In this document: positions 1,958 through 29,764 of the stretch, one piece after another | How positions within the stretch are numbered: position 1 is the stretch's first letter | Layout: the number at the start of each line of letters is the position of its first letter | Assembly: GCA_045538755.1 (NCBI GenBank) | Contig: JAZQEC010000002.1 | Location: 117,740-181,739 of the forward strand | From: Clostridia bacterium | GTDB lineage: Bacteria > Bacillota > Clostridia > UBA1381 | Direction: 5' to 3' | DNA length: 64,000 nucleotides | The notes under the pieces: generated by a model | Told to the model about the DNA's origin: nothing | Seen by the model: the letters and a program-made list of their open reading frames with translations, nothing else | Database searches by the model: none | Program-made: the position numbers and the translations under genes

Positions 1958-1959
1958 AA

Positions 1960-10128: not shown

Positions 10129-11007
10129 ATGGATAATAACGATAAGATACAAATATTTGAAGATAAAAAAATCAGAACTGCATGGAATGAAGAAACTGAA
10201 GAATGGTACTTTTCTGTGGTGGATGTTATATCAGTACTAACTGATCAGGCAACCCCAAGAAGTGCAAGTACATATTGGGCTGTTCTTAAAAAACGTCTTA
10301 AAGATGAGGGTGCCGATGAACTGCTTACAAATTGTAAGCAGTTGAAAATGACTGCAGCAGATGGCAAAAAAAGAATGACCGATGTTGCTGATACTGAACA
10401 ATTGCTCCGCATCATTCAGTCCATTCCTTCTCCAAAGGCAGAACCATTCAAGCTGTGGCTTGCACAGGTTGGAAGGGAAAGAATTGAAGAAACGATTGAT
10501 CCCGAAATTGCTATTGACAGAGCGTTAGAGACCTATCTCAAAAATGGTTATGATGAAGATTGGATTCATCAACGTATACTTTCCATCAGAGTAAGAAATG
10601 AACTTACTGCTGAGTGGCAACAGCGTGGCGTTGAAAAAGGCAAAGAATATGCAATTCTTACTGATGAAATCACAAAGGCATGGTCAGGTATGACAACGAG
10701 AAAATATAAAAATCTCAAAGGTCTCACCAAAGAAAACTTGAGAGATAATATGAGTACAACAGAACTCATACTTAATATGCTTGCAGAAACATCAACCAAA
10801 GATATATCAGAGCAAGAAAAGCCCGATGGGTTTGCAGAGAGTATAAAGGTTGCTCAATCAGGCGGTGAGGTTGCTAAAATCGCAAGAGAAGCCTTGGAGA
10901 AAAGAACCGGAGTTTCTGCAATAACATCAAAAAATGCAACTGAACTTAATCAGGTAGTGACAGATTTAATTGAAGGAATTGCGGAAGATATTGATGATGA
11001 TAAATAG
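10129..11007 (+). CDS. Bro-N domain protein (antirepressor/DinD-like)
   Basis: IQIFEDKKIRTAWNEETEEWYFSVVDVISVLT is a typical Bro-N start; GGAGG RBS before the ATG at 10129. Confidence 0.6.
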   Translation: MDNNDKIQIFEDKKIRTAWNEETEEWYFSVVDVISVLTDQATPRSASTYWAVLKKRLKDEGADELLTNCKQLKMTAADGKKRMTDVADTEQLLRIIQSIPSPKAEPFKLWLAQVGRERIEETIDPEIAIDRALETYLKNGYDEDWIHQRILSIRVRNELTAEWQQRGVEKGKEYAILTDEITKAWSGMTTRKYKNLKGLTKENLRDNMSTTELILNMLAETSTKDISEQEKPDGFAESIKVAQSGGEVAKIAREALEKRTGVSAITSKNATELNQVVTDLIEGIAEDIDDDK

Positions 11008-12572: not shown

Positions 12573-12701
12573 CTTATTACATTTAAAAGTCTGGATTAGT
12601 AGTTTTTAAACAAGAATAAGCCTATGTTTTAAAGCATGGGCTTTTTCTGTACACAAAATTTGGTCTTCATAAACCAAAGAAAAGAATTTTGAAAACCTTC
12701 G

Positions 12702-12730
12702 TGGACTTCCGCTCTCTTCTGTGGTATGCT
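12702..12730 (+). promoter_or_regulatory. Promoter-like element, copy A (TGGACT-17-TGgTATGCT)
   Basis: Part of a 36-nt block (12696-12731) that is 30/36 identical to 26345-26380. Followed by an RBS, a 17-codon ORF (12755-12808) and a hairpin. Confidence 0.35.
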
Positions 12731-12902
12731 TTGTCTCGCAGGAGGTGAAAAAATATGACAAGGCATACAAATGACTTAAGGCGATTGTTAATTCCTTTTA
12801 TGAATTAGCAATCGCCTTTTGAAATTAATACACTGAAACATTGACAACTCTTATATATTTTATCATTGGTGGTAAAATAAAATAAAAAGGAGTTGTTGAA
12901 AC

Positions 12903-13748
12903 ATGAATGAAATTACTAAACGCACTATTGAAGACTACAAGAATTATTTAATCGAGGAAGAAAAAAGTTCCGTCACCATAGAAAAATATATTCGTGACAT
13001 AAATGCATTCGTGCAGTGGTCGGACGGCAGAGCAATGACAAAGATACTTGTGCTTGAATACAAAAACATATTAGTACAGCAATATGCTCCTGCAAGTGTG
13101 AATTCGGTTTTATCTTCTCTCAACGGATACTTTAATTACATTGAAAGATACGATCTGAGGGTCAAGAACTTAAAAGTGCAAAGACAAATCTTCTGTCAGA
13201 GTGAAAAGGAACTGACCAAAGCAGAATACGAAAGACTTCTCAAAGCTGCAAAGAATAAAAAGAATGAGCGCCTCTACCTCATTATGCAAACGATATGTGC
13301 CACAGGAATCCGTGTGAGTGAACTGAAATACATCGATGTAAATTCTGTTATGACAGGTCAGGCTCAGGTTAGGTTGAAAGGCAAAATTCGAATAATAATA
13401 CTTCCAAAGGAACTGTGCCAACTACTGAAAAAATATATAAAGGAAAGGCATATCACATCAGGCAGTGTATTCGTAACGAGAAAAGGTCAACCTGTGGACA
13501 GGCACTCAATATGGAAATCGATGAAACAGTTGTGCGAGACCGCCGGAGTGTCAAAAGAAAAAGTGTTCCCACATAACCTCCGCCACCTGTTCGCACGAAC
13601 CTACTATTCGCTACAAAAAGATATCGTTCGCCTGGCGGATATACTTGGTCACTCAAGCGTAAATACTACCAGAATCTATACCATAGAAAATGGTTCTACC
13701 CACCGCAGGCAAATGCAAAGAATGGGACTTGTACGGATGCAAAATTAA
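12903..13748 (+). CDS. Tyrosine site-specific recombinase (XerC/XerD-like)
   Basis: ATGIRVSEL (Arg), HNLRHLFARTY (H-x-x-R) and LGHSSVNTTRIYT (His and Tyr) catalytic motifs; N-terminal SAM-like domain. Confidence 0.85.
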   Translation: MNEITKRTIEDYKNYLIEEEKSSVTIEKYIRDINAFVQWSDGRAMTKILVLEYKNILVQQYAPASVNSVLSSLNGYFNYIERYDLRVKNLKVQRQIFCQSEKELTKAEYERLLKAAKNKKNERLYLIMQTICATGIRVSELKYIDVNSVMTGQAQVRLKGKIRIIILPKELCQLLKKYIKERHITSGSVFVTRKGQPVDRHSIWKSMKQLCETAGVSKEKVFPHNLRHLFARTYYSLQKDIVRLADILGHSSVNTTRIYTIENGSTHRRQMQRMGLVRMQN

Positions 13749-14638: not shown

Positions 14639-14668
14639 TTGACAAATCTAACACCAATATGGTAAAAT
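14639..14668 (+). promoter_or_regulatory. Sigma-A-type promoter upstream of the XRE gene
   Basis: TTGACA, an 18-nt spacer, then TGgTAAAAT. Confidence 0.5.
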
Positions 14669-14723
14669 AATGTAAATTATGAATTCATTTAGTTGGTTAC
14701 TCTACGAAAAGAGGTTTGTAATA

Positions 14724-15269
14724 ATGGAAGAGATATCAAGATTTTTTCTAACTGAAGAAGAAAAGAATGAATTTATCGAAGCATTGACACCGGAATTAGC
14801 ACTGCTCCGGGCAAAAGCAGAAATATCACAAGAAGAAATAGCAAATTTAATAGGAGTTTCAAGACAAACGTATGGTTCGATAGAGAGAAAGGCGAGAAAA
14901 ATGTCATGGAATACTTACCTATCTCTTATTCTTTTTTATGATTATAATAAAAAAACGCACAAGATGATTCGAAACATCTCAGCTTTTCCGCATGAGTTAA
15001 TTAAACGTTTTAACGAAGGTGAAGAACCGGTTGACTTTGAGTTAAACATGTTATTTAAGGCGGATACAAAGAACATTATTGATTCGTTAGATGAACAGGC
15101 TATCTCCACACTAAAGACCATTTTAATGGTAGAATATTCTCGTTGTAATAATATTTCTGGTGAAGCGGTTGTTAAGTTCTTTGAGGGTGTTGATTTTACA
15201 AAGAGAGAAATTTCAGAAAAACAAGAAGATACAGCACAAGCATTAAAGAACATTAAAAGGAACAATTAG
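14724..15269 (+). CDS. XRE-family HTH transcriptional regulator
   Basis: ISQEEIANLIGVSRQTYGSIERKARKMSWNTYLSL HTH_3-type motif; AGAGG RBS before the ATG at 14724. Confidence 0.75.
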   Translation: MEEISRFFLTEEEKNEFIEALTPELALLRAKAEISQEEIANLIGVSRQTYGSIERKARKMSWNTYLSLILFYDYNKKTHKMIRNISAFPHELIKRFNEGEEPVDFELNMLFKADTKNIIDSLDEQAISTLKTILMVEYSRCNNISGEAVVKFFEGVDFTKREISEKQEDTAQALKNIKRNN

Positions 15270-15272: not shown

Positions 15273-15950
15273 ATGAGCAAAGCTATTAAGAAAATTACAA
15301 ACCAATTTATAAAACAACATTCAATATCAGTTGTAAATTATTCTACTTTAAGAGACGTGGCAAAAAGAATTGGTTATACAATTATAGAATTCAATAACAT
15401 TTTTAATGATAAAGATGTTGAAACGGTTATACAGAATTTACGACTCAGTGAAGCGGTGTCTCAATCAAGAGGATTTACATATGTAAGTAAAGATTATCGC
15501 CTTATTTTTATAAATGAGGATTTAAGCGATGATGAAAAGACTTTGGTTCTCTCGCATGAACTTGGGCATATTGTTTGCGAACATTTTACAACCACTCCTA
15601 TCATAGGCAAGGATGTCAAAGAGGAATATGAAGCAAATGAATTTTCTCATTATTTATTAAATCAAAACTCTTTGCGTAATTTAAAACTTACGATTACAAA
15701 ACATAAAAAGAAAGTAGCAGTAGTTGCACTGTCTTTTGTTGCCATATTGGTTACGATTGTCACTGTTATCACTATTAATCAAGAACAATCGTATTACGAC
15801 AATTGTTATATCACATCGACAGGAAATAAATACCATAAAAAAGATTGTATTTTTGTCAAGGATAAAACAACTGTAAAACGGTTGACTAAAGAAGAATATG
15901 ATGCCGGCAAATATGAAGCGTGCGACATGTGCTTGCCTGACAAAGAATAA
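15273..15950 (+). CDS. ImmA/IrrE-family zinc metallopeptidase with a TM helix and a C-terminal His/Cys cluster
   Basis: HELGHIVCEH HEXXH motif. TM helix VAVVALSFVAILVTIVTVITI. C-terminal YHKKDC...CDMC. Starts 4 nt after the XRE stop, the classic ImmR/ImmA pairing. Confidence 0.7.
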   Translation: MSKAIKKITNQFIKQHSISVVNYSTLRDVAKRIGYTIIEFNNIFNDKDVETVIQNLRLSEAVSQSRGFTYVSKDYRLIFINEDLSDDEKTLVLSHELGHIVCEHFTTTPIIGKDVKEEYEANEFSHYLLNQNSLRNLKLTITKHKKKVAVVALSFVAILVTIVTVITINQEQSYYDNCYITSTGNKYHKKDCIFVKDKTTVKRLTKEEYDAGKYEACDMCLPDKE

Positions 15951-15982
15951 ACATCTGCATTATGAGGAGAAAGGAAATTATT

Positions 15983-16852
15983 ATGGATAACGAAAAGAAA
16001 GTTATGTCTGCAACAGAAAACATAGAAAGCTCGGAGAATGTAGTTTTAGAAACACCAAATGCAACAGAAGAATCATGTTCCGTTGAATCAAATAGTGAAG
16101 AAAGAAGATGCCCAAACTGTGAAGCACTGATTATTGAAGAGAAATCTTTCTGCACGGAATGTGGTACTTCACTAAAAAGTGCCTGCGCAAAGTGTGGTAC
16201 AGAGTTGCAACCTGGACAACTTTTCTGTCCAGAATGCGGTAACCAAATAACTGAAAGCAACTGCGATGGGAATATAGCACAATATAATAAAGAAATTGCT
16301 GATAAGCAGAGAAAGAAAGGTAAACACAAAAAACTTAAAATCGTTCTAAGTGTAATTTTAGCAGTTTTGGTCGTAGTCGGTGGTTATTTTGGTTATATCT
16401 ATCATTTGAGACAACAAGTTTTAGGATATGCAATAGAAACAGAAAAATATATTGAAGCTATAAATGATACCAAAAGCGATCTCTCGGCTGCTAACGAAGC
16501 CTGGAATATAGTAAACAACGGTGGTTCTTGGCTTTACTATGGAACATTAAAATCTTATGCTAGATCGATGTTTTCAACTAACATTTCAAATGCAAAAACT
16601 GCAAATTCAAAAATAGTAGACCTCTATAATGATATAAAAGAATTTGAAATGGATGATTCATATGTTGATGATATAAAAGCAAAAGCACAAGAAGTGCAAG
16701 ATGTTTATTTGAGCGTGTATGATTCTGTAATTGTCAACGAAAGCGGCTATAGCAGTTCGAGTCTTTCAAATTTATCTACTAAGATTTCAGAACTCCAAAA
16801 AATTGTAGAAAATGTTAAAGATGCGTATGGTAACGCAAATGTGAAAAAATAA
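15983..16852 (+). CDS. Double zinc-ribbon / single-pass TM protein with helical extracytoplasmic domain
   Basis: CPNC-x10-FCTECG and CAKCG-x9-FCPECG, Lys-rich stop-transfer KQRKKGKHKK, TM helix IVLSVILAVLVVVGGYFGYIY. Confidence 0.6.
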   Translation: MDNEKKVMSATENIESSENVVLETPNATEESCSVESNSEERRCPNCEALIIEEKSFCTECGTSLKSACAKCGTELQPGQLFCPECGNQITESNCDGNIAQYNKEIADKQRKKGKHKKLKIVLSVILAVLVVVGGYFGYIYHLRQQVLGYAIETEKYIEAINDTKSDLSAANEAWNIVNNGGSWLYYGTLKSYARSMFSTNISNAKTANSKIVDLYNDIKEFEMDDSYVDDIKAKAQEVQDVYLSVYDSVIVNESGYSSSSLSNLSTKISELQKIVENVKDAYGNANVKK

Positions 16853-16887
16853 ACCGCATAGCGGTATATAGAAAGGAACTTTATATT

Positions 16888-17574
16888 ATGGAAAACGAAA
16901 ACAAAGTTATGCAGGAAGCAACAGTAACCGAAGCGGTTGAAAACGAAGCAAAGCAGCCTACAACAGAAAACAGATGCCCAAATTGTCAGGCTCTGCTTGG
17001 TGAAGGTCAAACCTTCTGTCCCGAGTGTGGAACTCCGCTTAAAAAACTTTGTCAGAAATGTGGTGCAGAACTGCAGAATGGACAGGTGTTTTGCGCAAAG
17101 TGTGGTCAAAAGACGGATGGAACCGTTGTGTTGGATGCTAGCCAAGCCATCAATCAGTTTAATACAAATATGGTAGCTCAACAAAAGAAAAACAAACTTA
17201 TTCCAGTTATTATTGGCGGAGTTTGCGTAGCTATTGCCATTCTACTTTTTGCTAGCGGAACAATCGGCGGTGGAGTGAATTTTGAAAAGAAATTTGCAGA
17301 TATAGCAGATGAATCATGGTGTGACATAGCATCTGATGGAAGTTATATGAAGTTAGATACAAATCCATATGATATTGAGGATAGCTTTGAAAGAGATGCA
17401 TGGAATGCAATTGAAGATACCAATGCAGAATTAGGCTTTTCAGAAGCGTTATTTAGTAAAATGGGTGAAACGCGGTCTATGGATGGAAGACAGTCAGACG
17501 AAAACGATAAATATAAAGTGACTTGGACATATCACCCGGATAAAGGTCTTGAAGTTATGTATGAGAAGAAATAA
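16888..17574 (+). CDS. Double zinc-ribbon / single-pass TM protein (paralog of the previous gene in its N-terminal module)
   Basis: CPNC-x10-FCPECG and CQKCG-x9-FCAKCG; TM helix LIPVIIGGVCVAIAILLFA. The N-terminus MENENKVMQ parallels MDNEKKVMS. Confidence 0.6.
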   Translation: MENENKVMQEATVTEAVENEAKQPTTENRCPNCQALLGEGQTFCPECGTPLKKLCQKCGAELQNGQVFCAKCGQKTDGTVVLDASQAINQFNTNMVAQQKKNKLIPVIIGGVCVAIAILLFASGTIGGGVNFEKKFADIADESWCDIASDGSYMKLDTNPYDIEDSFERDAWNAIEDTNAELGFSEALFSKMGETRSMDGRQSDENDKYKVTWTYHPDKGLEVMYEKK

Positions 17575-17608
17575 ATAACAACAAAAAATTTGACAAGGAG
17601 AATATATC

Positions 17609-18214
17609 ATGGGAAAATTAAATGTAATTATTGTTGACGCAACAGGAAACAAGGAGCAAAAGGTTGGATTACCTGATGATGTAAAAATCGGTATCATTAT
17701 GGTTAAGCTTGTTGAAAAAATCAAATTGCCTTCAACAGGTCCTGATGGTAATCCTATCAGCTATAAATTCATACATAAAGTTTCCGGAAGACAGCTTTTG
17801 GAAACACAGACTTTAGCAGATGCTCATATCAAAGATGGAGATGTATTAAGGCTTCAACCCGAAATTACTGCAGGCGCAGTTTGCACAAAGTGCGGTAAAA
17901 CTATGCAAGATGGAGTTGCTTTTTGCACAGATTGCGGACAGCCGATGAATATTGTACAGCAACCAAATTTTGTTCAACCCAATTATGGAGTATATCAGGT
18001 TAACACAATCAACAAATCTACCCCTGTTAAGGTGTTGGGAATTATTTCGTCGGTAATACATTTTTTGGCGACATTTATATTTTTAATGGTAGCTTTCGAT
18101 TGTTATGATTTTGAATATGCAGCACCATATCTTATGTTTGCGTTTTTCTTTTGTGCCCAGGGGTTTTTAACTTTAGCAATGACTATTTATATGTCAAACA
18201 GAATTAAAAAGTAA
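17609..18214 (+). CDS. Ubiquitin-like beta-grasp domain fused to a zinc ribbon and two TM helices (tethered Ubl precursor)
   Basis: Residues 1-89 have a beta-grasp-like pattern ending GDVLRLQPEITAG (compare ubiquitin LVLRLRGG). Then CTKCG-x9-FCTDCG and two hydrophobic helices. Confidence 0.6.
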   Translation: MGKLNVIIVDATGNKEQKVGLPDDVKIGIIMVKLVEKIKLPSTGPDGNPISYKFIHKVSGRQLLETQTLADAHIKDGDVLRLQPEITAGAVCTKCGKTMQDGVAFCTDCGQPMNIVQQPNFVQPNYGVYQVNTINKSTPVKVLGIISSVIHFLATFIFLMVAFDCYDFEYAAPYLMFAFFFCAQGFLTLAMTIYMSNRIKK

Positions 18215-18224
18215 GGTGAATATT

Positions 18225-19412
18225 ATGTCGACGGAATTAGAATTAAATAAAGAGGATTTTGAAGAAACCAGATATTCACGATTAGAACTTATTCCCTGGT
18301 GGAATCAAGAACTTCTACACAATTCAACAGTAATGGTTGTAGGTGCCGGTGCCATCGGCAATGAACTTATCAAAAACCTTGCCTTGCTTGGTGTGGGCAA
18401 AATCGTTATTGTTGATATGGATAAGATTGAGCAAACAAACCTTACTCGTTCTATTCTTTATAGAATGAAAGATGTTGGCAAATATAAATCCCAGGCCGCA
18501 GCAGAAGCTGCTATGGAGATTAATCCTGATGTTAAAGCAATATGCCTCAATCAGAATATTGTTACAGATATTGGTCTTGGTGTATTTCGCAGTATGGATA
18601 TTGTTCTCGGTGGTCTTGATAACCGTGAAGCAAGACTTGCAATTAACCAGTCATGTTATAAGGTAAACAAGCCCTGGATTGATGGTGCTATTGAGGTTTT
18701 AAACGGTTTTGCTAGAGTGTTTGTTCCGCCCGGTCCGTGTTATGAATGCACAATGACCGAAACAGACTGGAAACTCATCAATAAACGTAAATCCTGTGCA
18801 CTTTTAACGCATGATGAGATGTTAGAAGGCAAAACGCCTACTACACCTACTTCATCATCAATTATTGCAGGTGTTCAGGTTCAAGAAATGCTGAAGATTT
18901 TGCACAATGACAGAAATCTTCCTACGCTTGCCGGCAAAGGGTATGTGTTCAATGGACTTACCCATGATTCTTTTGTCGTAGAGTACCAGCTTAAAGATGA
19001 TTGTATGAGCCATGATTTGTATGACAATATAAGGGAAATGGATTGGTCTGCTCGTGAAGTGTCTGTAAAAGATGTTTTAAATCAGGCAGCAAAAGACCTT
19101 GGTGATGGTGCAATCATTGAATTTGATCGTGATATTGCTACAACTGCAACCTGTGTTTGTGGAGATACAAAAGACATTTTCAATACTGTGAACCGTCTTC
19201 GTGGCAAAGATATTGTTTGCGAAAAATGTGGTAAATCTATGCAATTTGAAACTATACACACAATTAATGGTGAAGAAGATTTTCTTGATAAAAAATTATA
19301 TGAAATCGGTATACCTTTGTATCATATCATTGCAGTGAGGAAAGGTATGAAATATGTTTATTATGAATTATCAAAAGATAAAAACGAAGTGTTAGGAGGT
19401 CTGTTTGAATGA
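18225..19412 (+). CDS. E1-like adenylating enzyme (ThiF/MoeB/UBA family)
   Basis: VMVVGAGAIGNE Gly-loop, DxD at IVDMDKIEQTNLTRS, GGLDNREAR, and two Cys pairs (CYEC, and CVCG...CEKCG). Its stop overlaps the E2 start (ATGA). Confidence 0.8.
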   Translation: MSTELELNKEDFEETRYSRLELIPWWNQELLHNSTVMVVGAGAIGNELIKNLALLGVGKIVIVDMDKIEQTNLTRSILYRMKDVGKYKSQAAAEAAMEINPDVKAICLNQNIVTDIGLGVFRSMDIVLGGLDNREARLAINQSCYKVNKPWIDGAIEVLNGFARVFVPPGPCYECTMTETDWKLINKRKSCALLTHDEMLEGKTPTTPTSSSIIAGVQVQEMLKILHNDRNLPTLAGKGYVFNGLTHDSFVVEYQLKDDCMSHDLYDNIREMDWSAREVSVKDVLNQAAKDLGDGAIIEFDRDIATTATCVCGDTKDIFNTVNRLRGKDIVCEKCGKSMQFETIHTINGEEDFLDKKLYEIGIPLYHIIAVRKGMKYVYYELSKDKNEVLGGLFE

Positions 19413-21334
19413 ATGCAAGAATGAGGAGAATTGCCTCCGACTATGAACAGATTAAGAAGAATTTTTCGAATCATAAGAATATTGTAGTAGAACCAATTGG
19501 TGAAGAACCTGCCGAAAAGTACAGAGTTACATATTATGTAAATGGTATATACCTTTTAGAAGACGGCAGGATCGAAACTCTTGGTAAACACATCGTAATT
19601 ATTACATTACATGCTGAATATCCGAGATATAAGCCGATATGTACTATTGCTACACCTATCTGGCATCCTAATTTTAGAGATGGACAGATTTGTATAGGTG
19701 ATATCTGGGGAGCTGGAGAATCACTCTGCGATATTATTGTAAACATCGGTGATATGATTCAATATAAATCCTGGAACTCCTTTAGTCCTCTTTCTGCTGA
19801 TGCTGCCGAGTGGGCTATTGCAAACAAACACCTATTCCCTGTTGGTAATGTTAATTTGTGGACCGGCGAGGAAGAAGACGGCACAGTAAAAAAAGAGTTT
19901 GATATTGATCTTTTTGATGAAGATGAAGAAACATCATCAACTGAAACTATTCCGGAAGTGGTAGAATCCGCTCCTGTACAGGAAGAAATGCCGGTTGTTT
20001 CAGCAGAAACAACTGTTGAACAAGTTCCTGTAGCTACTGCTATATTGGAAAATGAAGATGAGAATGACTTTGAAATTACTGCTGAAGAATTAGAAGGAAT
20101 TGAATTTGTTCCGACTGCAGTAAGAATGCAAGGCAGCCAATATGGAGCAACTGCAAAAGGTGGCAAAGTTAACTTTAAAACTGTATTAGTCAAAGGCTTA
20201 TTATGGGCTTTAATAGGCGCATTTATTGGCTTTGGTGTTTCAGAAGTTTCTGATGGTTTAACTGGTAATGCCTCCGTTGCAAGAATGTTAGGACATCCTG
20301 AAATTGCTGAATATTATGAATATACAGAGCAAGCAAATGATGTTTTAGCCCCTGTAGATGCAGCATTTGAAAAATACTGCAAAGAACAAGGAATAGATCC
20401 TGAATCAGAAAACGCTTTAACAAATTGGTTGACGAACAATACTTCTAAGTATTCAAGTACTGTCGAAAAATATTTGGAATACAATGAAAAAGCCGAAAAT
20501 GCATTGTATGAAGCCTATGAAAATGATTTTAATTCTAACGAAGACAAACTTGGCGAAGCGATGGAAGGAATATCAAGAACTCATACTGCATTGTGGTCCG
20601 CATTAATCGCTTTATTCATCGGTCTTTTCCTTGGTCTTGGAGAAGGCATATACTATGGTTCAAAGGAAAATGCAATTAAATATGCTTTAATTGGTGCCGG
20701 TATATCAATAGTTGTTGGTGCTGTAAGCGGATATCTTGCACAGTGGATGTATGCTTCGATGTTGACCGATTATTCGTCTGACTTTACCAAAGCTCTCGTA
20801 AGAGGTTTGGGTTGGGCAATAATGGGTATTGGTATAGGCTTATCCGTAGGTCTTATCAAATCTGAACAAAAGAGAATAATTTTCTGTTCTCTCGGTGGTG
20901 TTATTGGTGCATTTATAGGAGGATTCCTATTTAACTATGTATGTGATATCATTCCAAATGACATTGTTGCACGCGGATTTGCAATAGTTATTATGGGCCT
21001 TTTGATCGGTGTTGGCGTAGGTGTACTTGAACAGTTTGCAAAAGCTGCTTGGCTCAAAGTTATAAGAGGTGAATTTGAAGGTAAAGAATATCTTGTATTT
21101 GAAGGTACAACAAGTATTGGTAATAGTGGAAAGAACACTATTGTATTGTTCAAAGATAAACTTGTTGCACCAAATCATTGCGATATTGTTCAAGAAGGTA
21201 GCAAATATGTCCTGGTAGATAAAGGCTCACCAATGGGTACTGTTGTTAATGGTATGCGTGTGACTCGCCATGTTTTAAAACAGGGTGATGCAGTTGCTAT
21301 CGGTAACTCTGTACTAGTATTTAACACGAAATAA
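19409..21334 (+). CDS. UBC-type E2 fused to about six Gly-rich TM helices and a C-terminal FHA domain
   Basis: YPRYKPICTIATPIWHPNFRDGQICIGDIW (H86-P87-N88, Cys95). Hydrophobic GxxxG-rich segments between about residues 258 and 545. C-terminal IGNSGKNTIVL...VVNGMRV...GDAVAIGNSVLVF is FHA-like. Confidence 0.75.
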   Translation: MNARMRRIASDYEQIKKNFSNHKNIVVEPIGEEPAEKYRVTYYVNGIYLLEDGRIETLGKHIVIITLHAEYPRYKPICTIATPIWHPNFRDGQICIGDIWGAGESLCDIIVNIGDMIQYKSWNSFSPLSADAAEWAIANKHLFPVGNVNLWTGEEEDGTVKKEFDIDLFDEDEETSSTETIPEVVESAPVQEEMPVVSAETTVEQVPVATAILENEDENDFEITAEELEGIEFVPTAVRMQGSQYGATAKGGKVNFKTVLVKGLLWALIGAFIGFGVSEVSDGLTGNASVARMLGHPEIAEYYEYTEQANDVLAPVDAAFEKYCKEQGIDPESENALTNWLTNNTSKYSSTVEKYLEYNEKAENALYEAYENDFNSNEDKLGEAMEGISRTHTALWSALIALFIGLFLGLGEGIYYGSKENAIKYALIGAGISIVVGAVSGYLAQWMYASMLTDYSSDFTKALVRGLGWAIMGIGIGLSVGLIKSEQKRIIFCSLGGVIGAFIGGFLFNYVCDIIPNDIVARGFAIVIMGLLIGVGVGVLEQFAKAAWLKVIRGEFEGKEYLVFEGTTSIGNSGKNTIVLFKDKLVAPNHCDIVQEGSKYVLVDKGSPMGTVVNGMRVTRHVLKQGDAVAIGNSVLVFNTK

Positions 21335-21345
21335 TATAGAAGGAG

Positions 21346-22200
21346 ATGAGTGGTATGAAATATAGAATTATCAGCATAGCGATTGTGTTCATACTGCTTA
21401 TCTCTTTTTCTGCATATGCAATTAACTTTACACCTGAAGAGACATATAATTCGGTGGTTGTTGTATATACAGATACAGGGGTTGGCAGTGGTTTTTCTAT
21501 TAAAGAAAATATAATAATAACAAACGCACATGTTGTGGGATACAGTAAAAAAGTTGCAGTTAATTTATACGATGGAACGACAATTAAAGGCAACGTTATA
21601 AAAACTGATATTGAAAAAGATTTGGCGTTGATTGAGGTTGATAAAACAATTACACCATTAAGTATAAATTCAAACAATTTAAGTATAGGTCAGGAAGTAT
21701 ATGCAATAGGCGCACCAAAAGATATGCCTTACACCATGACCAAAGGAATCATATCAGCACTTGACAGAAAACTTGGACAAAACACCTACATACAAATAGA
21801 TGCATCTGTAAATTCCGGAAACAGTGGCGGTCCGCTTGTTGATGACAATGGAAATGTGATTGGAATCATTACTCTAAAAGCATCTGATGCGGAAGGAATT
21901 GGCTTTGCAATTAACACAAAAGATATCAATAATTTTATTGAAGGTGTAGAAGTCCCTGAGCAACAAGTTTCTTCTGAAACCGAAAATGGAGAAAAAGATA
22001 TATTGCCAAACGAAAATAATGCTGAAACAAATGAAATGCAAAAGACTCTTATGGCAGAAAACGATGGATTAAAAATAGCACTGTGTATGTCTGTTATTTT
22101 TAATATTATATTAGGATTGTTATACCTTCACATATTGTTTAAAAAACGTTCCAAGAAAGAAAAAGACGAGTTTGATTTTGAAATTGAAATTGAGGAGTAG
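21346..22200 (+). CDS. Trypsin-like (S1/HtrA-type) serine protease, exported, with C-terminal TM anchor
   Basis: Signal-like MKYRIISIAIVFILLISFSAYA. Triad motifs TNAHVV, DLALIEV and GNSGGPLV. C-terminal helix LKIALCMSVIFNIILGLLYLHILF. The start may be the ATG at 21355. Confidence 0.8.
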   Translation: MSGMKYRIISIAIVFILLISFSAYAINFTPEETYNSVVVVYTDTGVGSGFSIKENIIITNAHVVGYSKKVAVNLYDGTTIKGNVIKTDIEKDLALIEVDKTITPLSINSNNLSIGQEVYAIGAPKDMPYTMTKGIISALDRKLGQNTYIQIDASVNSGNSGGPLVDDNGNVIGIITLKASDAEGIGFAINTKDINNFIEGVEVPEQQVSSETENGEKDILPNENNAETNEMQKTLMAENDGLKIALCMSVIFNIILGLLYLHILFKKRSKKEKDEFDFEIEIEE

Positions 22201-22205
22201 CGATT

Positions 22206-23177
22206 ATGAAGAAGAAAAAAACTAAGGCAAGGGTTTCTCATAAAAATATTACACCCGATTTGCCACAAAATATAGTTCCTGTAGGAGAAAGAGTTTTTGA
22301 TGATAAAAACATTTATATTCATCAAAAAGTTTATGCACAAATACATAAATTTGCTGCCAATAAAACAGAAAATGAGCATGGTGGAATCTTGGTTGGCAGA
22401 ATTCTAAATGAAATGGGTAAAGAAAATACAATTATAGAAGGCTTTATTGAAGCGAAATACAATGCAGCTACGCCTACTACTTTAACATTCACCCACGAAA
22501 CATGGGATTATTTCCATTCTGAAATGGATAGAAAGTATAAGGATAAAAAAATTGTGGGATGGATTCATACTCATCCTAATTTTGGAATATTCTTGTCTGA
22601 AAATGACCGATTTATACAACAAAATTTCTTCACTGATGCTAATCAGGTAGCCTATGTAGTCGATCCAATTCAAAATGATGAAGGCTTCTTCTTTTGGGTG
22701 AATGAAAAATTAGAACGTTGCCCTGGTTTTTACTTGTTTGATAAAAACGGAGTTAAAATAAAACAAAAGGCATGGTCAACTGATCCGGATGAACTTAATG
22801 AAGATGTAATTGTAAAACATAGTAAGATACATCCTATTCTTACAATTGCACTTGTTCTTGTTATACTTGTAAATCTTTTTGTGATAATGCAACAATCTAG
22901 GAGAATAGACACGCTTGAAAGGCAGGTTGAGGATCAGGAATTGGTACTTCGGTATGGTGTTCTTGGCATTTATGGTAATCCTGAAATATCGGATGTTGCT
23001 GATAATATAAGACAGCAAATAGAAGCACAGGAAAAATCTAAAAAACAAGCGATTCAGGATGCTATGAAACAACAAAAAGAACAACAAGCGACAGAGGCGA
23101 ACGAACAAGAACAAAAAGAAGAAAAAAATACTGAAGAAAATGAAACAAACACAGAGAATAACGGAGGTACAGAATAA
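22206..23177 (+). CDS. JAB/MPN (JAMM) metallopeptidase with TM helix and E/Q/K-rich tail
   Basis: ENEHGGILVG (Glu) and HTHPNFGIFLSEND (H-x-H-x7-S-x2-D); TM helix IHPILTIALVLVILVNLFVIM. Confidence 0.8.
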   Translation: MKKKKTKARVSHKNITPDLPQNIVPVGERVFDDKNIYIHQKVYAQIHKFAANKTENEHGGILVGRILNEMGKENTIIEGFIEAKYNAATPTTLTFTHETWDYFHSEMDRKYKDKKIVGWIHTHPNFGIFLSENDRFIQQNFFTDANQVAYVVDPIQNDEGFFFWVNEKLERCPGFYLFDKNGVKIKQKAWSTDPDELNEDVIVKHSKIHPILTIALVLVILVNLFVIMQQSRRIDTLERQVEDQELVLRYGVLGIYGNPEISDVADNIRQQIEAQEKSKKQAIQDAMKQQKEQQATEANEQEQKEEKNTEENETNTENNGGTE

Positions 23178-24022
23178 TGGATTTTATAGGTAAAATTTGT
23201 CCCTATTGCAAAACTGAATTTAAAGAAGGCGATGATGTCGTTGTATGTAGCGTTTGCGAAATGCCACATCACAAAGAATGTTGGATAGAAAATAAAGCAT
23301 GTACTACATTTGGATGCACAGGCACAATTGTTGGTGCAGAGCAATATGCAGAAGCTGTAGATAATAAGACATTCTGTTCTAAATGTGGAGCGCCTTTAAG
23401 TGAAGGGCAAAAATTCTGTGCTTCATGCGGAACACCAGCAGGAGCAACAGGTGAACCACATTTTCAGGTTGCTGGAGCATATGCGGCAAACCAAAGTTAT
23501 CAGCAAAATACATATACTGCGCCTCAGCCACAGTACACACCTCAATATTCTGCTCCGCAGTATAATGCTGGTTATAATCCTTATGGTCAACAACAGGTCG
23601 ATCAGGATTTATATACATTTATACAGTCTAATCAGCCATTCTATATATCAAAGTTCCAAAAAATGCAGATGAGTAACAGTAAAACATCATGGAATTGGTG
23701 TAGCTTTTTATTCAGTGCATATTGGTTGGCATATAGAAAAATGTATGGTATAGCAGCGGCATATGCCGGAATCTCCTTCGTATTAGGGTTGATTCCTGGT
23801 CTTGGTTCTATTTTAGGATTAGCAATGTCTATCTGTGCTGGTATATTTGGAAATCATTTTTATAAACAATATATAGACGGAGAATTACAGGTAGCTAAGA
23901 GTATGGATGCGATGAATAAAACCGCCTATATAGCCAAGAAAGGTGGAACAAGCGCAGGTGCAGTTTGGGTTGTTATAGGAATAATGACTGTTCTTGGAAT
24001 GATAATAGGCAGTAGCATGTAA
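23177..24022 (+). CDS. Prok-RING-like C4HC3 finger + zinc ribbon + Q/Y/P-rich linker + DUF2628-like TM domain (E3 candidate)
   Basis: C8-x2-C11-x12-C24-x2-C27-x4-H32-x2-C35-x6-C42-x4-C47 in ICPYCKTEFKEGDDVVVCSVCEMPHHKECWIENKACTTFGC. Then FCSKCG-x9-FCASCG, and WNWCSFLFSAYWLAYRKMY. Confidence 0.6.
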   Translation: MDFIGKICPYCKTEFKEGDDVVVCSVCEMPHHKECWIENKACTTFGCTGTIVGAEQYAEAVDNKTFCSKCGAPLSEGQKFCASCGTPAGATGEPHFQVAGAYAANQSYQQNTYTAPQPQYTPQYSAPQYNAGYNPYGQQQVDQDLYTFIQSNQPFYISKFQKMQMSNSKTSWNWCSFLFSAYWLAYRKMYGIAAAYAGISFVLGLIPGLGSILGLAMSICAGIFGNHFYKQYIDGELQVAKSMDAMNKTAYIAKKGGTSAGAVWVVIGIMTVLGMIIGSSM

Positions 24023-24033
24023 GGAGGCTTATT

Positions 24034-24996
24034 ATGGATGATACAAATATTGAAATTTTAGAAACCGAAAGTGTTGTTATCGAAAGTTCAGTAGTTGCAT
24101 TACCTATGAATTTTGTGTCTGTAGGAACTGTGGAACACGATAGTGTTCAGGTTTATATCAAACAAGATGTTTATAAACGAATAGAGAAATTCGCTAAAGA
24201 AGAAATGTCAAAAGAAGTTGGAAGTATTTTAATTGGCGACTATGTGGATGAAAAAGACAGAAAAACTATAATAATTTCAAATTACATTGAAGCAAAATAT
24301 ACCGATGCTTCTGCCTCTACTCTTACCTTTACACATGAAACATGGGATTATGTATATAGAGAAAAGGATAAAAAATATCCGGACAAAAAAATAGTTGGCT
24401 GGCAACACACTCACCCGGGATATGGAATTTTCCTATCAAATTATGATATTTTCATACAGGAAAATTTCTTTAACCTTCCTTGGCAGATTGCATATGTTGT
24501 AGATCCTATTGCAGATACAAGAGGATTTTTTGAGTGGAAAAATGATAAAGTTGCCAAAATGTCAGGCTTTTATGTTTATGATGAAATTGGCAGAGAAATA
24601 AAAATTTCAGAAAAAGCCAAGCCTGTTAAAAAACATTTTTCCATTACAACTATTATTTTGTCGTTCTTGCTACTTGTTTCGCTATTGGTTTCAGTTTCGT
24701 TTGGGATTGAGAAAAACAATGTTATGGATAGGCTCAACGAAGCACTTGCAACGATAAGCCAGCAATCCAACATTCAAATGGATGAAACACCAACGGTAGT
24801 AGAACAAGAACTGCCCGAAGATGTTGAAGCATTTAAGGTGTATGTAGTACAGGAAGGTGATTATCTAGAAAGTATATGCGAGCAATATGGTTTAGATTAC
24901 ATGAGCAATATACAGAAGATAATGAGAATCAATAGCATAACAGATGTAAATAAAATCTATGTAGGTCAAAAATTGTACTTGCCTATAAACGAATAA
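24034..24996 (+). CDS. JAB/MPN (JAMM) metallopeptidase with TM helix and C-terminal LysM
   Basis: SKEVGSILIG and HTHPGYGIFLSNYD JAMM motif. TM helix ITTIILSFLLLVSLLVSVSFGI. LysM: YVVQEGDYLESICEQYG...INSITDVNKIYVGQKLYLP. Confidence 0.8.
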   Translation: MDDTNIEILETESVVIESSVVALPMNFVSVGTVEHDSVQVYIKQDVYKRIEKFAKEEMSKEVGSILIGDYVDEKDRKTIIISNYIEAKYTDASASTLTFTHETWDYVYREKDKKYPDKKIVGWQHTHPGYGIFLSNYDIFIQENFFNLPWQIAYVVDPIADTRGFFEWKNDKVAKMSGFYVYDEIGREIKISEKAKPVKKHFSITTIILSFLLLVSLLVSVSFGIEKNNVMDRLNEALATISQQSNIQMDETPTVVEQELPEDVEAFKVYVVQEGDYLESICEQYGLDYMSNIQKIMRINSITDVNKIYVGQKLYLPINE

Positions 24997-25008
24997 AGAG
25001 GTGTTTTT

Positions 25009-26283
25009 ATGATAATATGCTCTCGTTGTAAAACAGAAAATGAAGACGATGTGAAATTTTGTAGAGAATGCGGAAACGATTTGATAACAAATGTTGATGC
25101 ACCGGCGAATGAGGATCTAAAAAGCTTGGCAGACTCATTAAATGAACAAGCAGTACATACAGAAAAACAACCATTTAATCTTAATAAAGCTATTTCTGAA
25201 GTGCCAAAAAAACTTTGGAGCGGAATAAAGAAATCTATATTTTTTAGAAAAAAGAAAAATACAATTATCACCTGTTCTTCTCTAGTAGTCATGATATTGT
25301 TGATAATTGGAGTTTTAAATAGCGGTTATATTGCGTTTACCATGGCATACAACATGGGTAAATACGATGCAGCAAAAAATATTCAAGGATGGTCGTTTAA
25401 TAGTAATGGTGTGAAATCTAATATAGAGAAATTTGTCATAAATAAAACTGAATCTTACTATGCTGATTTCTCTTCCGAGAAGATAACGTATGAGGAAGCT
25501 AATGAAAAGTTTGATATTGCGGAGGATTTCAGCAGCAACAAGGATGCAAAAAATAAGGCTGATAAATTACAAACTTCAAGAACATCTTATACAAAAGCAG
25601 AAGAATACGAGAAGAACGGCGATACCTTTAGTGCTGTATTGGAATATCTTAAAGTAATCGAAGAAGATAAAAACTATAATACAGCAAAAGAAAAAATAGA
25701 AAAGAATAAGCCAACTGTAAAACAACAAGCTATTTCACAAATGGATAACTGTGTTGCAGTAAATGATTTTAATACTGGTTTAAAAATTGTATCCGATATG
25801 GAAAAGATATTCTCTAACGATGCTGATATTAATAATTATAAAAAGGATTTTGAAGCACGTAAAGAAGCACATAGAATTCAGGAATTAAAAGATAATCAAA
25901 AAGTCAAAGTTACAAGCGTAAGATCATTTAACGATGGTTATTATATTGTTTTTAGAAAAGCCCAAGCAATATTGAAAAATTGCAGCAATAATGTTTTAAA
26001 AGAAGCAACAATTGTGTTCTTGTTGTTCGATAGTAACGGATATCCTGTAGATGCAGATTATTCGATGTACTCAGAAAGTGGAGTAGACAATAGTGAACGA
26101 TGTGGTACGGGAAGCATGAATCTACAACCTGGTGAATCTTGGGGGTACGGCAAGGCGATGGATATTCCGGATAATGCAACGCAAGTTAAAGCCTGTGTAA
26201 AATCTGCTGAATTTTATGATGGCGGTACATGGACGAATCCGTATTACGAACATTGGCTTAAAACTGAAAAAGACAGATATTAA
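25009..26283 (+). CDS. Zinc-ribbon / single-pass TM protein with large extracytoplasmic domain
   Basis: CSRCK-x9-FCRECG at the N-terminus, FFRKKKNT stop-transfer, TM helix SSLVVMILLIIGVLNSGYIAF, about 320-aa external region. Confidence 0.6.
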   Translation: MIICSRCKTENEDDVKFCRECGNDLITNVDAPANEDLKSLADSLNEQAVHTEKQPFNLNKAISEVPKKLWSGIKKSIFFRKKKNTIITCSSLVVMILLIIGVLNSGYIAFTMAYNMGKYDAAKNIQGWSFNSNGVKSNIEKFVINKTESYYADFSSEKITYEEANEKFDIAEDFSSNKDAKNKADKLQTSRTSYTKAEEYEKNGDTFSAVLEYLKVIEEDKNYNTAKEKIEKNKPTVKQQAISQMDNCVAVNDFNTGLKIVSDMEKIFSNDADINNYKKDFEARKEAHRIQELKDNQKVKVTSVRSFNDGYYIVFRKAQAILKNCSNNVLKEATIVFLLFDSNGYPVDADYSMYSESGVDNSERCGTGSMNLQPGESWGYGKAMDIPDNATQVKACVKSAEFYDGGTWTNPYYEHWLKTEKDRY

Positions 26284-26290: not shown

Positions 26291-26331
26291 AAAGAGATAT
26301 AGCAGCATTTGGTTGTTATATCTCTTTTTTC
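26291..26331 (+). terminator. Rho-independent terminator closing the Ubl operon
   Basis: aaagagatata / tatatctcttt stem followed by a T-run. Confidence 0.65.
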
Positions 26332-26350
26332 GTTCAAAAAAATTCCTTCG

Positions 26351-26379
26351 TAGACTTATGCCATCTTCTGTGGTATGTT
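26351..26379 (+). promoter_or_regulatory. Promoter-like element, copy B (TAGACT-17-TGgTATGTT)
   Basis: The 36-nt block 26345-26380 is 30/36 identical to 12696-12731. Confidence 0.35.
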
Positions 26380-26424
26380 TGTGTTGCTAGATAAGGTAAA
26401 TACAAAAATCAGGAGATGAATATT

Positions 26425-28413: not shown

Positions 28414-29213
28414 GTGAGAGGATTTGCATATGGTCGTCTATCAAGAGACGAAGACAGCGAACAGGAATCCCTGAAAAATCAGGAAGATTTGGTCGTTGGA
28501 TTTATGAAGAAAGGGAACCATATAGTTATCGAAATAGGAATGGATGATAACTATACAGGAATGGATTTTGACAGACCGGGAATTAAGCGAATGTTTGAAC
28601 TGGCAAGAAACGGCGAGATTGATGCAGTATTCGTGAAAGACTTAACTGCACATCTCATAGAATTCGAGAGGAAATGCTTGACAAGATAGTACAAGCCGAG
28701 CTTGAAGGAATACGATTAGTATTCGATGACCTATGGGAGAATGTAGAGGCTGATGTCAAGAAATGGGCAGCAGGAAAATCTACAACAGAGAAAAGGCTCG
28801 AAAATCTTAAGCAAAGCATTTCGGATACAGAGCTTGAAATCCAGAAAATCCTTATGGAAAGGATTGAGGATAAACAGAATGCTGATATGTATGACAAGAT
28901 GATTGAGACAAGGCGAAATGACATTGAGAACTTTAAAAAGGAAGTTTATGAGATAGAAAACCTTGATAAAACAATCAAGGATAGAAAATCTACTCTCAAA
29001 CATTCCATAGAGTTACTCGATGATATCATAGCCGAAAACAACATCAGTAATGCAAACCTGCACCTGATGTTTGACAAAATCATCATTGAAGAAACGGGCG
29101 AAGGATTAAATCTTGACCTGAGATTAAAATCCCCGTTTATCAGCAAAGCAAAAGAGTCATTACTCAAGAAATATATGATAGTAGATAACCAAGTTTTACA
29201 GGAAGGAGCGTGA
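28414..29213 (+). pseudogene. Large serine recombinase remnant (internal deletion plus frame change)
   Basis: The N-terminal 77 aa look like a resolvase domain (FAYGRLSRDEDS nucleophile Ser; IDAVFVKDL), then read out of frame to a stop. ORF 28674-29213 in another frame is the coiled-coil C-terminal part. The recombinase and zinc-ribbon domains are missing. Confidence 0.65.
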
Positions 29214-29400: not shown

Positions 29401-29485
29401 TGGTGCGGCTGAAGGGACTTGAACCCCCACGTCATTGACACTAGATCCTAAGTCTAGCGCGTCTGCCAATTCCGCCACAGCCGCA
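29401..29485 (-). tRNA. tRNA-Leu (anticodon UAG), CCA encoded, carried inside the island
   Basis: The reverse complement folds as a class II tRNA. Acceptor GCGGCTG/CAGCCGC, D arm GGCGGAATTGGCAGACGC, anticodon stem-loop CTAGA-CTTAGGA-TCTAG, long variable arm, T arm GGGGG-TTCAAGT-CCCTT, then ACCA. Confidence 0.9.
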
Positions 29486-29612
29486 TATTAAGTTTTACCT
29501 CTTAATTTTTACACGGTAGAGGTTACCCGAGGAGGAGCAAAAACGCTTAATCCTCATCTATGAAAACGGAAAAACCGTAATCAACAATTCTTTCACCGAG
29601 GTGGATGAAGCA

Positions 29613-29648
29613 AAGTCTAGCGCGTCTGCCAATTCCGCCACATCCGCA
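29613..29648 (-). pseudogene. Orphan 5' half of tRNA-Leu (acceptor, D arm, 5' anticodon stem), right junction of the island
   Basis: Differs at 1 of 36 positions from 29450-29485. Acceptor 5' strand GCGGATG pairs with CATCCGC of the left half at 7243-7293. Confidence 0.8.
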
Positions 29649-29764
29649 TTGATGCACCCCTTAAGGCACTCGTCTATTATAACAATTAAAGTGCAGTTTG
29701 TCAAGAGTTTTTCCGAAAATTTATATATTGTACTTGTATATTTTCAAAAATCATTTAAAATATT

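Follow-up and report, generated by a model that had tools for sequence, protein, structure and literature searches.

A ten-gene operon from a gut Clostridia bacterium (lineage UBA1381) very likely performs ubiquitin-like (Ubl) conjugation, and all of its parts except the activating enzyme are predicted from their sequences to be built into the cytoplasmic membrane. The operon lies in a 64,000-nucleotide stretch of contig JAZQEC010000002.1 (assembly GCA_045538755.1, positions 117,740 to 181,739 of the forward strand), hereafter the window, whose coordinates are used throughout. It combines a Ubl modifier, an activating enzyme (E1), a conjugating enzyme (E2), a candidate ligase (E3) with a RING-type finger, two JAB peptidases, an exported protease and several zinc-ribbon proteins with transmembrane (TM) helices. 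We hold with good confidence that it is a ubiquitin-type tagging machine which is assembled at the inner side of the membrane and travels as cargo on an integrative element; a conflict or defence or envelope-surveillance role is the likeliest one. The operon and its control region are made up of the following features.

14639-14668, + strand: sigma-70-like promoter (TTGACA-18-TAAAAT with TG; 11/12 consensus match) ahead of the XRE gene
14679-15269, + strand: XRE-type helix-turn-helix regulator, CapH-like in kind (Pfam HTH_31/HTH_3; PADLOC control protein, 7e-6)
15273-15950, + strand: ImmA/IrrE M78 metallopeptidase (HExxH), CapP-like in kind (Pfam Peptidase_M78, 1.6e-9)
15962-16852, + strand: g1, variable accessory with a cytoplasmic double zinc ribbon, one TM helix and an ectodomain of ~150 amino acids (aa); homologues in 7/80 loci
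16888-17574, + strand: g2, double zinc ribbon, one TM helix and an ectodomain of ~100 aa; homologues in 31/80 loci
17609-18214, + strand: g3, Ubl precursor, with the fold domain in residues 1-89 (17609-17875), then a zinc ribbon and a two-helix TM hairpin (Pfam YukD, 5.6e-12)
18216-19412, + strand: soluble E1 activating enzyme, 398 aa (Pfam ThiF, 7.5e-55)
19409-21334, + strand: E2, 641 aa, with a UBC domain (1-150), an acidic linker, six TM helices and an FHA-like domain (Pfam UQ_con and FHA)
21346-22200, + strand: exported HtrA/DegP-like serine protease, no PDZ (Pfam Trypsin_2, 1.3e-29)
22206-23177, + strand: JAB1, cytoplasmic JAMM peptidase with one TM helix and a low-complexity outside tail (Pfam JAB, 2e-9)
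23177-24022, + strand: g8, RING-CH (C4HC3) finger, zinc ribbon and 2-3 TM helices (DUF2628), candidate E3 (Prok-RING_1, 2.5e-14)
24034-24996, + strand: JAB2, cytoplasmic Rpn11-like JAMM peptidase with one TM helix and an extracellular LysM domain (Pfam JAB, 6.2e-10)
25009-26283, + strand: g10, zinc ribbon, one TM helix and an ectodomain of ~310 aa ending in DUF5780 (9.1e-21); homologues in 5/80 loci
26291-26327, + strand: intrinsic terminator at the operon end (16-bp stem-loop and T-run)

An open reading frame (ORF) check of the window found ten + strand ORFs filling 15962-26283, exactly the coordinates given in a preliminary description of this DNA, which had been made from the letters and their translations. 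The ten co-directional genes, two overlapping junctions and terminator of that description were all recovered. Intergenic spacing within the array is 1-35 nt, the E1 and E2 genes overlap as ATGA (19409-19412), the JAB1 and RING genes overlap as TAATG (23175-23179), and the operon is closed by the terminator.

An AlphaFold2 (AF2) model of the Ubl (predicted local distance difference test score, pLDDT, 87.8) has a beta-grasp fold with the element order beta-beta-alpha-beta-beta. The best solved match of this model in Foldseek is the ubiquitin of Caldiarchaeum (6fno/6fj7; E 1.5e-6, TM-score 0.74, 26-27% identity), followed by ubiquitin variants, the Bil Ubl (8tyx), SUMO and NEDD8. The beta-grasp-like Ubl with an LRLQPEITAG end that was first read from the translation is therefore supported by profile, model and structure search alike. 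The Ubl domain spans 89 residues in some 70 loci, where it has the invariant end ...LRLQPEITAG (C-terminal end ...DVLRLQPEITAG), and the final glycine is followed directly by a stop codon (about 15 loci), by 1-8 unrelated residues or by a long fusion, which is either a zinc ribbon with TM helices, as in the window, or a TM helix with an ectodomain. Model, matches and the ITAG89 end together describe a Ubl-fold modifier with an exposed or exposable C-terminal glycine. In the precursors of ubiquitin and of Caldiarchaeum ubiquitin, a C-terminal extension is removed and the reactive glycine is exposed (PMC6043591); the invariant ITAG end followed by a stop, a short tail or a fusion is the signature of such a processed modifier. 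The window precursor is predicted to be cut after Gly89, freeing an 89-residue modifier, and its zinc-ribbon/TM tail would be a removable extension rather than a permanent anchor. The TM part of the Ubl noted previously is present in the window, but most relatives have a free Ubl of 89-98 aa, which speaks against a lasting anchor. In three relatives (L002, L017 and L025) the Ubl continues after ...ITAG as a TM helix and an extracellular domain of ~300 aa, without a zinc ribbon. In eukaryotes, ubiquitin is encoded fused to other proteins, among them zinc-ribbon ribosomal proteins, and the fusions of these three loci recall such genes. NCBI names the Ubl homologues 'EsaB/YukD family protein', a label that is misleading for these Ubls; public records otherwise carry no informative names.

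The E1 and E2 have the residues expected of their classes. In the E1, the motifs GAGAIGNE and DNREAR, the pair C175xxC178 and the crossover-loop cysteine C194 are invariant or nearly so across the 41-74 homologues compared, with C194 invariant across the family. The nearest solved structure is the active adenylation domain of Uba1 (1.7e-30), ahead of ThiF (3.9e-21). Adenylation motifs and a catalytic cysteine are thus present at the level of sequence, in line with the ThiF-type E1 originally proposed from its GAGAIGNE, DNREAR and CxxC motifs. Public records begin the E1 at the ATG at 18225, which gives 395 aa. The UBC domain of the E2 matches Pfam UQ_con (2.6e-6), and HPN86-88 and C95 are invariant in 36-69 sequences, in a canonical HPNx5GxIC context, so the initial call of a UBC-type E2 with HPN then Cys95 is upheld. 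Among solved structures the E2 sequence matches only eukaryotic E2s (best 6.4e-6), and its low-confidence fold model retrieves only E2s, over ~146 residues. The full-length E2 model, which is weak in the UBC and FHA parts and has a block-mean pLDDT of ~70-88 in the TM region, was used only for topology and for this weak fold search.

The C-terminus of the E2 carries a domain matching Pfam FHA (3.1e-12). The FHA assignment made earlier stands, but a canonical phosphothreonine-binding FHA does not: relative to the GarA sequence, the contact residues are replaced (GR by GN572, SRxH by APNH590 and SxNG by SPMG), and these substitutions are invariant across the family. This suggests that the E2 FHA-like domain is probably not a phosphothreonine reader. 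The FHA-type domains of EssC and YscD are not known to keep the phosphothreonine contacts either. In the type VIIb secretion system (T7SSb), non-covalent contacts join YukD, a Ubl, to the YukB FHA domains (PMC12637312). By analogy, the E2 FHA-like domain more likely serves to dock another protein, which may be the YukD-like Ubl.

The remaining catalytic parts of the operon are two JAB peptidases, a RING-type protein and a serine protease, and the two intact JAMM motifs, C4HC3 finger and S1 triad reported from the translations are all present and conserved in the same 41-74 homologues. The motif HxHx7Sx2D is invariant or nearly so in both JABs, giving two copies of an intact JAMM site. The solved relatives of JAB2 are Rpn11 (2.1e-10) and the Caldiarchaeum Rpn11-like protein (1.9e-6), then CSN5 and AMSH. 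At its C-terminus JAB2 has a LysM domain (7.4e-10), and a LysM-like tail occurs on 46 of 71 JAB2 homologues. The C4HC3 spacing of the RING finger was read directly and is invariant or nearly so across homologues. Together with the Prok-RING_1 match and the TM region (Pfam DUF2628, 7.8e-7), this shows that the operon encodes a TM protein with a RING-type finger, a candidate E3. In the protease, a signal sequence is followed by an outside S1 domain with a triad (H62/D92/S160) that is invariant or nearly so, a C-terminal TM anchor and a short acidic cytoplasmic tail; NCBIfam DegP/HtrA models match it under their cut-offs. The tail after the TM helix (22117-22200) ends in a conserved acidic EFDFEIEIEE, which may be a docking site joining the outside protease to the machinery inside.

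Topology was assigned with a hydropathy scan and the positive-inside rule. The E1 is the only operon product without hydrophobic segments (0 TM in 74/74 homologues), which agrees with the earlier statement that every product but the E1 has TM helices. JAB1, JAB2, g1, g2 and g10 are N-in single-pass proteins, with the JAB or zinc-ribbon part inside and LysM, DUF5780 and the other domains outside. The finger and zinc ribbon of the RING protein lie inside and precede the 2-3 TM helices, while the UBC domain, acidic linker and FHA-like domain of the E2 are all cytoplasmic around six TM helices, with a helical TM1-TM2 loop (residues 280-390) outside. TM counts are similar family-wide (E1 0, E2 5-6, RING 2-3, JABs 1). 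The catalytic ubiquitin-type domains are thus predicted to lie inside, and the protease, LysM and ectodomains outside, throughout the family.

To characterise the conservation of the array, we searched for relatives of the E2-TM-FHA protein. Homologues fall into at least 795 clusters at 90% identity, all full-length, and a scan with one genome per species yielded 80 loci from different species. Most are in Clostridia (Oscillospiraceae, Acutalibacteraceae, Lachnospiraceae, Christensenellaceae and Clostridium), including the cultured carriers Massiliimalia massiliensis Marseille-P2963, Clostridium weizhouense YB-6 and Lachnospiraceae MC2017 and LC2019. Synergistaceae and Roseiflexaceae are each represented by a single contig, according to binning; a few bin labels of metagenome-assembled genomes (MAGs) are implausible and should not be over-read. 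The recurring order is [XRE-ImmA]-[variable zinc-ribbon/RING-TM]-Ubl-E1-E2-S1-JAB1-RING-JAB2. This recurrence of the Ubl-E1-E2-S1-JAB-RING-JAB core in 80 species-level loci is more than chance, and it answers in the affirmative the question of whether the array is conserved, for which the preliminary description had proposed a neighbourhood search. Among the 41 loci with full flanks (complete loci), Ubl, E1 and E2 are each present in all 41, the RING-type protein in 40, JAB2 in 39, the S1 protease in 35 and JAB1 in 34. When only loci whose E2 is <70% identical to the window E2 are considered, median identity is 86.5% for the Ubl, 67% for the E1 and 62% for the E2, and falls to 52% for JAB1, 46% for JAB2, 39% for the RING protein and 38% for the S1 protease. 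A constrained modifier with diverging specificity factors is the pattern that a conjugation system predicts. The only conserved flanking genes are recombinases, which suggests that the module is self-contained and mobile. An ABC-ATPase cluster near 17 loci was considered as a partner and dismissed, its position and strand being scattered.

The slot upstream of the Ubl is variable. In relatives it holds 1-5 proteins with Prok-RING_1, one or more zinc ribbons, TM helices and unrelated ectodomains, for example TPR-like repeats. Judged by sequence, g2 is a RING-less version of these proteins with RING, double zinc ribbon, TM helix and ectodomain. Pfam matched zinc ribbons in g1, g2, g3 (the Ubl), g8 (the RING protein) and g10. 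The three zinc-ribbon/TM proteins described previously are therefore present in the window, but they are not conserved parts in the manner of the core: g1 and g10, with homologues in 7/80 and 5/80 loci, are lineage-specific accessories, and g2 recurs in 31/80. A PADLOC 'Cyclase' match on residues 144-229 of g10 (E 0.0018) was judged spurious. Outside the island described below, 38433-39509 (- strand) encodes a protein that begins with a zinc ribbon and ends in a YARHG domain, so zinc-ribbon-led proteins also occur beyond the ubiquitin-type system.

The XRE and ImmA genes had been described as neighbours of an operon starting at 15962. Their presence is confirmed, but the status of mere neighbours is not: they are co-directional with the operon, the ImmA gene ends 11 nt before g1, and the pair stands directly upstream of the module in 16-19 of the 41 complete loci (an XRE homologue in 19/41). 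The start at 15962 was also not kept, since the XRE gene at 14679 with its near-consensus promoter is the likelier one; the transcription unit most likely starts at this gene, from the promoter at 14639-14668. The HELGH motif of the ImmA peptidase is conserved among homologues, and the protein has one TM helix (residues 148-170) and a conserved C-terminal Cys motif. The two genes are arranged like a CapH/CapP-type regulator pair, with a helix-turn-helix gene and an M78 metallopeptidase gene directly ahead of the system; the PADLOC matches are weak (XRE to capH, 5e-3; ImmA to capP, 5.7e-5). An XRE repressor/ImmA protease switch probably controls the operon.

The operon is located in a region of low GC content (0.32-0.37 at 10-30 kb, against ~0.38-0.43 in most of the remaining window), which has the following boundary features.

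7243-7293, no strand assigned: 51-nt, 84% copy of the tRNA-Leu 3' half, beginning exactly at the tRNA 3' end; left att-like island end
12696-12731, no strand assigned: left copy of a 36-nt imperfect direct repeat (30/36), paired with 26345-26380
12903-13748, + strand: tyrosine recombinase (Pfam Phage_integrase, 8.1e-31)
26345-26380, no strand assigned: right copy of the 36-nt repeat, 18 nt past the terminator, paired with 12696-12731
29401-29484, - strand: intact tRNA-Leu (tRNA search); right island end

The tRNA-Leu and its partial copy look like the att-type ends of a 22.2-kb integrated island, and with the recombinases and the low GC content they bear out the mobile-island setting that had been proposed. 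The island contains an HTH_36/DnaD-like gene, a MobL relaxase, a Bro-N protein, the tyrosine recombinase, an SLOG gene, the operon and serine-recombinase fragments. Within it, the 36-nt repeats bracket 13.6 kb comprising the tyrosine recombinase, SLOG, XRE and ImmA genes and the ubiquitin-type operon. The core of this repeat was found, among 81 loci, only in two contigs (L070 and L074) of one closely related MAG, and so gives no independent proof of a mobile 13.6-kb unit. In 8 other loci, each from another species, the module is preceded at a distance of 77-1390 bp by a similar tyrosine recombinase, which is suggestive of the module moving as a small, possibly nested, integrative unit.

Several other observations were made in and around the island. 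The Bro-N protein (10078-11007) matches the PADLOC phage-defence candidate PDC-S13 (4.7e-133). The neighbouring 515-aa protein (11025-12572), initially called HEPN, had no Pfam or PADLOC match; the label is unsupported by these profiles, and only an RNDIAH (Rx4H) motif near the C-terminus was seen. Beside the tRNA, at least two ORFs (28414-28689, a Resolvase N-terminal fragment, and 28674-29213) are pieces of a broken serine recombinase, a probable pseudogene. The 5' half of the tRNA-Leu (29450-29486) is duplicated 163 nt away (29613-29649, 97%), and a 26-nt inverted repeat (7294-7319 and 29587-29612) links the left island end to the sequence beside this duplicate; both may be scars of repeated integration. 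The left flank (8-6849) resembles a prophage late region, with a coiled-coil tape-measure-like ORF, a Sipho_Gp37-like tail protein (2775-3740) and, just before the left island repeat, an endolysin-like gene with CHAP and PG_binding_1 domains (5968-6849). Elsewhere in the window, a T-box leader (59445-59707, - strand; Rfam RF00230, 115 bits) lies upstream of the gene at 57828-59375.

No bacterial chain in the PDB is as close to the E1, E2 and JAB as eukaryotic proteins are. The nearness of the E1 to Uba1, of the E2 to eukaryotic E2s and of JAB2 to Rpn11 puts the parts in the eukaryote-like class reconstituted from Caldiarchaeum. The operon of Caldiarchaeum subterraneum (ubiquitin, E1, E2, small RING and Rpn11), whose system has been reconstituted in vitro (PMC5654768, PMC6043591), has the same five functions in one cluster, and its modifier, like the Ubl here, starts out as a precursor that is extended at the C-terminus (PMC6043591). 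However, it is archaeal and its modifier ends in di-glycine rather than Ala-Gly, and the operon here adds membrane anchoring of all parts but the E1, a second JAB, an exported protease, LysM, zinc-ribbon proteins and the XRE/ImmA pair. A further cluster with related parts was found on the cyanobacterial plasmid pCRI9333.03 of Crinalium epipsammum (L081, 6248-9725), beside genes for plasmid replication and type IV coupling. Its five genes encode soluble proteins, in the order E1, a protein of 82 aa, a Ubl-like protein of 85 aa, a UBC E2 and an MPN/JAB protein. The Crinalium E1 shares 35% identity with the window E1 over 327 aa, a span that takes in the crossover-loop Cys and the Cys pairs near the C-terminus, the Crinalium E2 is 28.6% identical over residues 1-145, and the 85-aa protein, which ends in ...AEGG, aligns end to end with the Ubl. 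The Crinalium cluster differs in having no E2-TM-FHA fusion, no Pfam-detectable RING and no protease.

The class to which the operon belongs was foreseen in silico. Prok-RING_1 (PF14446, 'Prokaryotic RING finger family 1') matches both the g8 finger and the accessory proteins of relatives, and Pfam reportedly mentions TM helices in its bacterial members. Burroughs, Iyer and Aravind reportedly predicted, in 2011, prokaryotic ubiquitin systems with RING fingers, and a C4HC3 finger with TM helices in one operon with Ubl, E1, E2 and JAB is like the class that they are said to have outlined; we are moderately confident that the present family is already listed there. Later sources point the same way: prokaryotic 'RING-CH+2TM' genes are noted from computation as a possible ancestral form (PMC3464245), complete bacterial E1/E2/E3 operons are said, again from computation, to exist (PMC5654768), and a 2023 preprint calls operon families with RING E3s uncharacterised (PMC10557695). 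'Bacterial lysM-associated JAMM' sequences had also been noticed (PMC6043591). No experimental study of a membrane-anchored bacterial E1/E2/RING system was found in the literature searched. The operon is a clearly distinct variant relative to every experimentally characterised system.

E1/E2/JAB sets are known from type II cyclic-oligonucleotide-based antiphage signalling systems (CBASS; Cap2/Cap3) and from the four-gene Bil systems (Ubl, E2, JAB, E1), and the operon might be a divergent member of these or of Bub, which we consider extremely unlikely. PADLOC E1-E2 (Cap2) models do match the E1 (best 1.3e-21), as does BilD in part (3e-8, on the adenylation core), and JAB models match both JABs, but these matches span only the shared adenylation and JAB folds. 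PADLOC gave nothing beyond such generic E1/JAB matches and the partial BilD, with no system-specific model matched, and no NCBIfam model reached its cut-off for the operon products. Type II CBASS shares an E1-like adenylation domain and a JAB peptidase with the operon, but there a single protein, Cap2, combines E1 and E2, and it is the CD-NTase that becomes conjugated instead of a Ubl; here E1 and E2 are separate genes, and neither a CD-NTase nor a cyclic-nucleotide effector was found in the twelve genes with Pfam and PADLOC. Bil has in common the Ubl, E2, JAB and E1 genes, cysteine-based conjugation and a Ubl that is among the structural matches, but it has no RING gene of its own, whereas the locus here comprises ten to twelve genes with RING and TM anchoring, and BilA, BilB and BilC were unmatched. 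Bub is likewise a bacterial E1/E2/Ubl operon that includes a serine protease, and BubE has been suggested to be peripherally membrane-associated, but Bub enzymes lack catalytic cysteines and form oxyester intermediates (PMC11601596), in contrast to the invariant C194 and C95 of this family, and BubE is a beta-sandwich Ser-His protease rather than one of S1/HtrA fold. None of the three has a RING protein, TM anchoring, an HtrA-like protease or LysM. Type II CBASS, Bil and Bub were excluded on these grounds, which agrees with the first assessment that the locus is neither CBASS nor Bil, and the proposed PADLOC check found no named subtype. A second explanation, that the Ubl is a non-conjugated structural subunit of the YukD/EsaB kind in a type VIIb-like membrane complex and that the E1, E2 and JABs do not tag, is very unlikely. 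It has on its side the Pfam YukD match, the NCBI naming and the FHA-like domain of the E2, a membrane-proximal, non-phosphothreonine FHA-type domain being found in both systems; YukD is not conjugated (PMC1779556) and binds the FHA of a membrane ATPase (PMC1779556, PMC12637312). However, no EssC/YukB, WXG100 or YukC gene occurs in the operon or among the conserved neighbours of the 80 loci, so a T7SSb YukD module was excluded, while E1, E2 and JAB are present with every catalytic residue of the E1, the E2 and both JABs kept across the family. The best structural matches are conjugatable ubiquitins, and a structural subunit would leave the invariant C-terminal glycine and the removable variable tails unexplained. 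A sulfur-carrier or biosynthetic pathway of the ThiS/MoaD-ThiF type is barely conceivable: NCBIfam ThiF/MoeB models match the E1 far under their cut-offs, but the E1 is nearer Uba1 than ThiF, a UBC E2, a RING and Rpn11-like JABs are present, and neither genes of thiamine, molybdopterin, cysteine or siderophore pathways nor a rhodanese domain turned up with Pfam and NCBIfam.

If the operon does conjugate its Ubl, what is the tagging for? A conflict or defence role falls just short of an even prospect. Quality control or turnover of membrane and envelope proteins, a house-keeping function directed neither at phages nor at other mobile genetic elements, is unlikely; it would resemble endoplasmic-reticulum-associated degradation (ERAD) or MARCH-type ubiquitination, with the TM E2 and RING-CH TM E3s tagging membrane proteins and the JABs and HtrA-like protease completing the process. 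Doa10 and MARCH are eukaryotic membrane RING-CH ligases and Ubc6 is a tail-anchored E2, and the operon parallels them in architecture, with a C4HC3 finger on a TM protein and a membrane-anchored UBC E2 at the cytosolic face. Homology is evident only at the type of finger, and no Cdc48 or proteasome partner is apparent here. The possible ancestral status of prokaryotic RING-CH+2TM genes, an HtrA-like protease and a LysM domain in the operon also fit quality control, as does the outcome of the Pfam and PADLOC searches, which detected no effector of nuclease, NADase or pore type among the operon genes. What speaks against it is the sporadic distribution in variable and mobile contexts, the island location in the window, the fast diversification of the accessory RING/ectodomain proteins and the XRE/ImmA switch, all of which are typical of accessory conflict modules and not of core proteostasis. 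We infer that the system most probably gives the mobile element an inducible function, either in conflict or defence or in surveillance of the envelope.

Several points weigh against the reading of a tagging machine with such a role. The Ubl ends in Ala-Gly, not Gly-Gly. The UQ_con score (27.5 bits) barely clears the Pfam cut-off of 27.0, the AF2 model of the UBC domain is of low confidence (pLDDT 45-78), and the RING finger has no significant match among solved structures. The XRE/ImmA pair may regulate the mobile element instead of the operon. No target is identifiable from sequence, and what goes beyond folds, motifs, topology, the processing signature and conservation we infer. With regard to defence, no known PADLOC defence model matches any specific component, and no E2 homologue was found in the phage collection or in IMG/VR, which leaves mobility and the regulators as the grounds for that role.

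For the tagging machine that we favour, a sequence of steps can be proposed. One or other of the Rpn11-like JABs would cut the Ubl precursor after Gly89. The soluble E1, in which the corresponding motifs are seen, would adenylate this glycine and load the Ubl on Cys194, from which it would be handed to Cys95 of the membrane-embedded E2, in the observed HPN...C context. One or more RING-CH TM proteins acting as E3 would bring the charged E2 to lysines of membrane or membrane-proximal targets, and the JABs would take the tag off again. The HtrA-like protease, LysM and variable ectodomains may link the cytoplasmic tagging with conditions at the cell wall or in the envelope, and the XRE/ImmA pair would gate expression. 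An extension of this scheme, tentative and on balance doubtful, is outside-in ubiquitination, in which arrays of TM RING-CH proteins with fast-evolving ectodomains would sense surface events such as phage contact or wall damage and steer the membrane E2 so that it attaches the Ubl, the best-conserved part of the system, to membrane proteins.

Bacterial ubiquitin-like conjugation has been shown experimentally only recently, in type II CBASS, Bil and Bub. Part for part, the operon described here is the closest to eukaryotic proteins among the bacterial systems compared, with a Uba1-like E1, an HPN-Cys UBC E2, RING-CH ligase candidates, Rpn11-like peptidases and a processed modifier that outconserves its enzymes, and it is the only one of them that is integrated into the membrane and presents domains towards the cell wall. 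The cultured carriers make the system experimentally approachable. If conjugation is confirmed, it would open the questions of what bacteria tag at their membranes, how surface events reach a ubiquitin-type cascade and whether eukaryotic membrane RING-CH ligases have bacterial roots. Outside-in ubiquitination, if true, would be a widespread pathway of gut Clostridia, a bacterial counterpart and possibly a relative of MARCH/Doa10 membrane ubiquitination, and a new mode of bacterial immunity or envelope surveillance.

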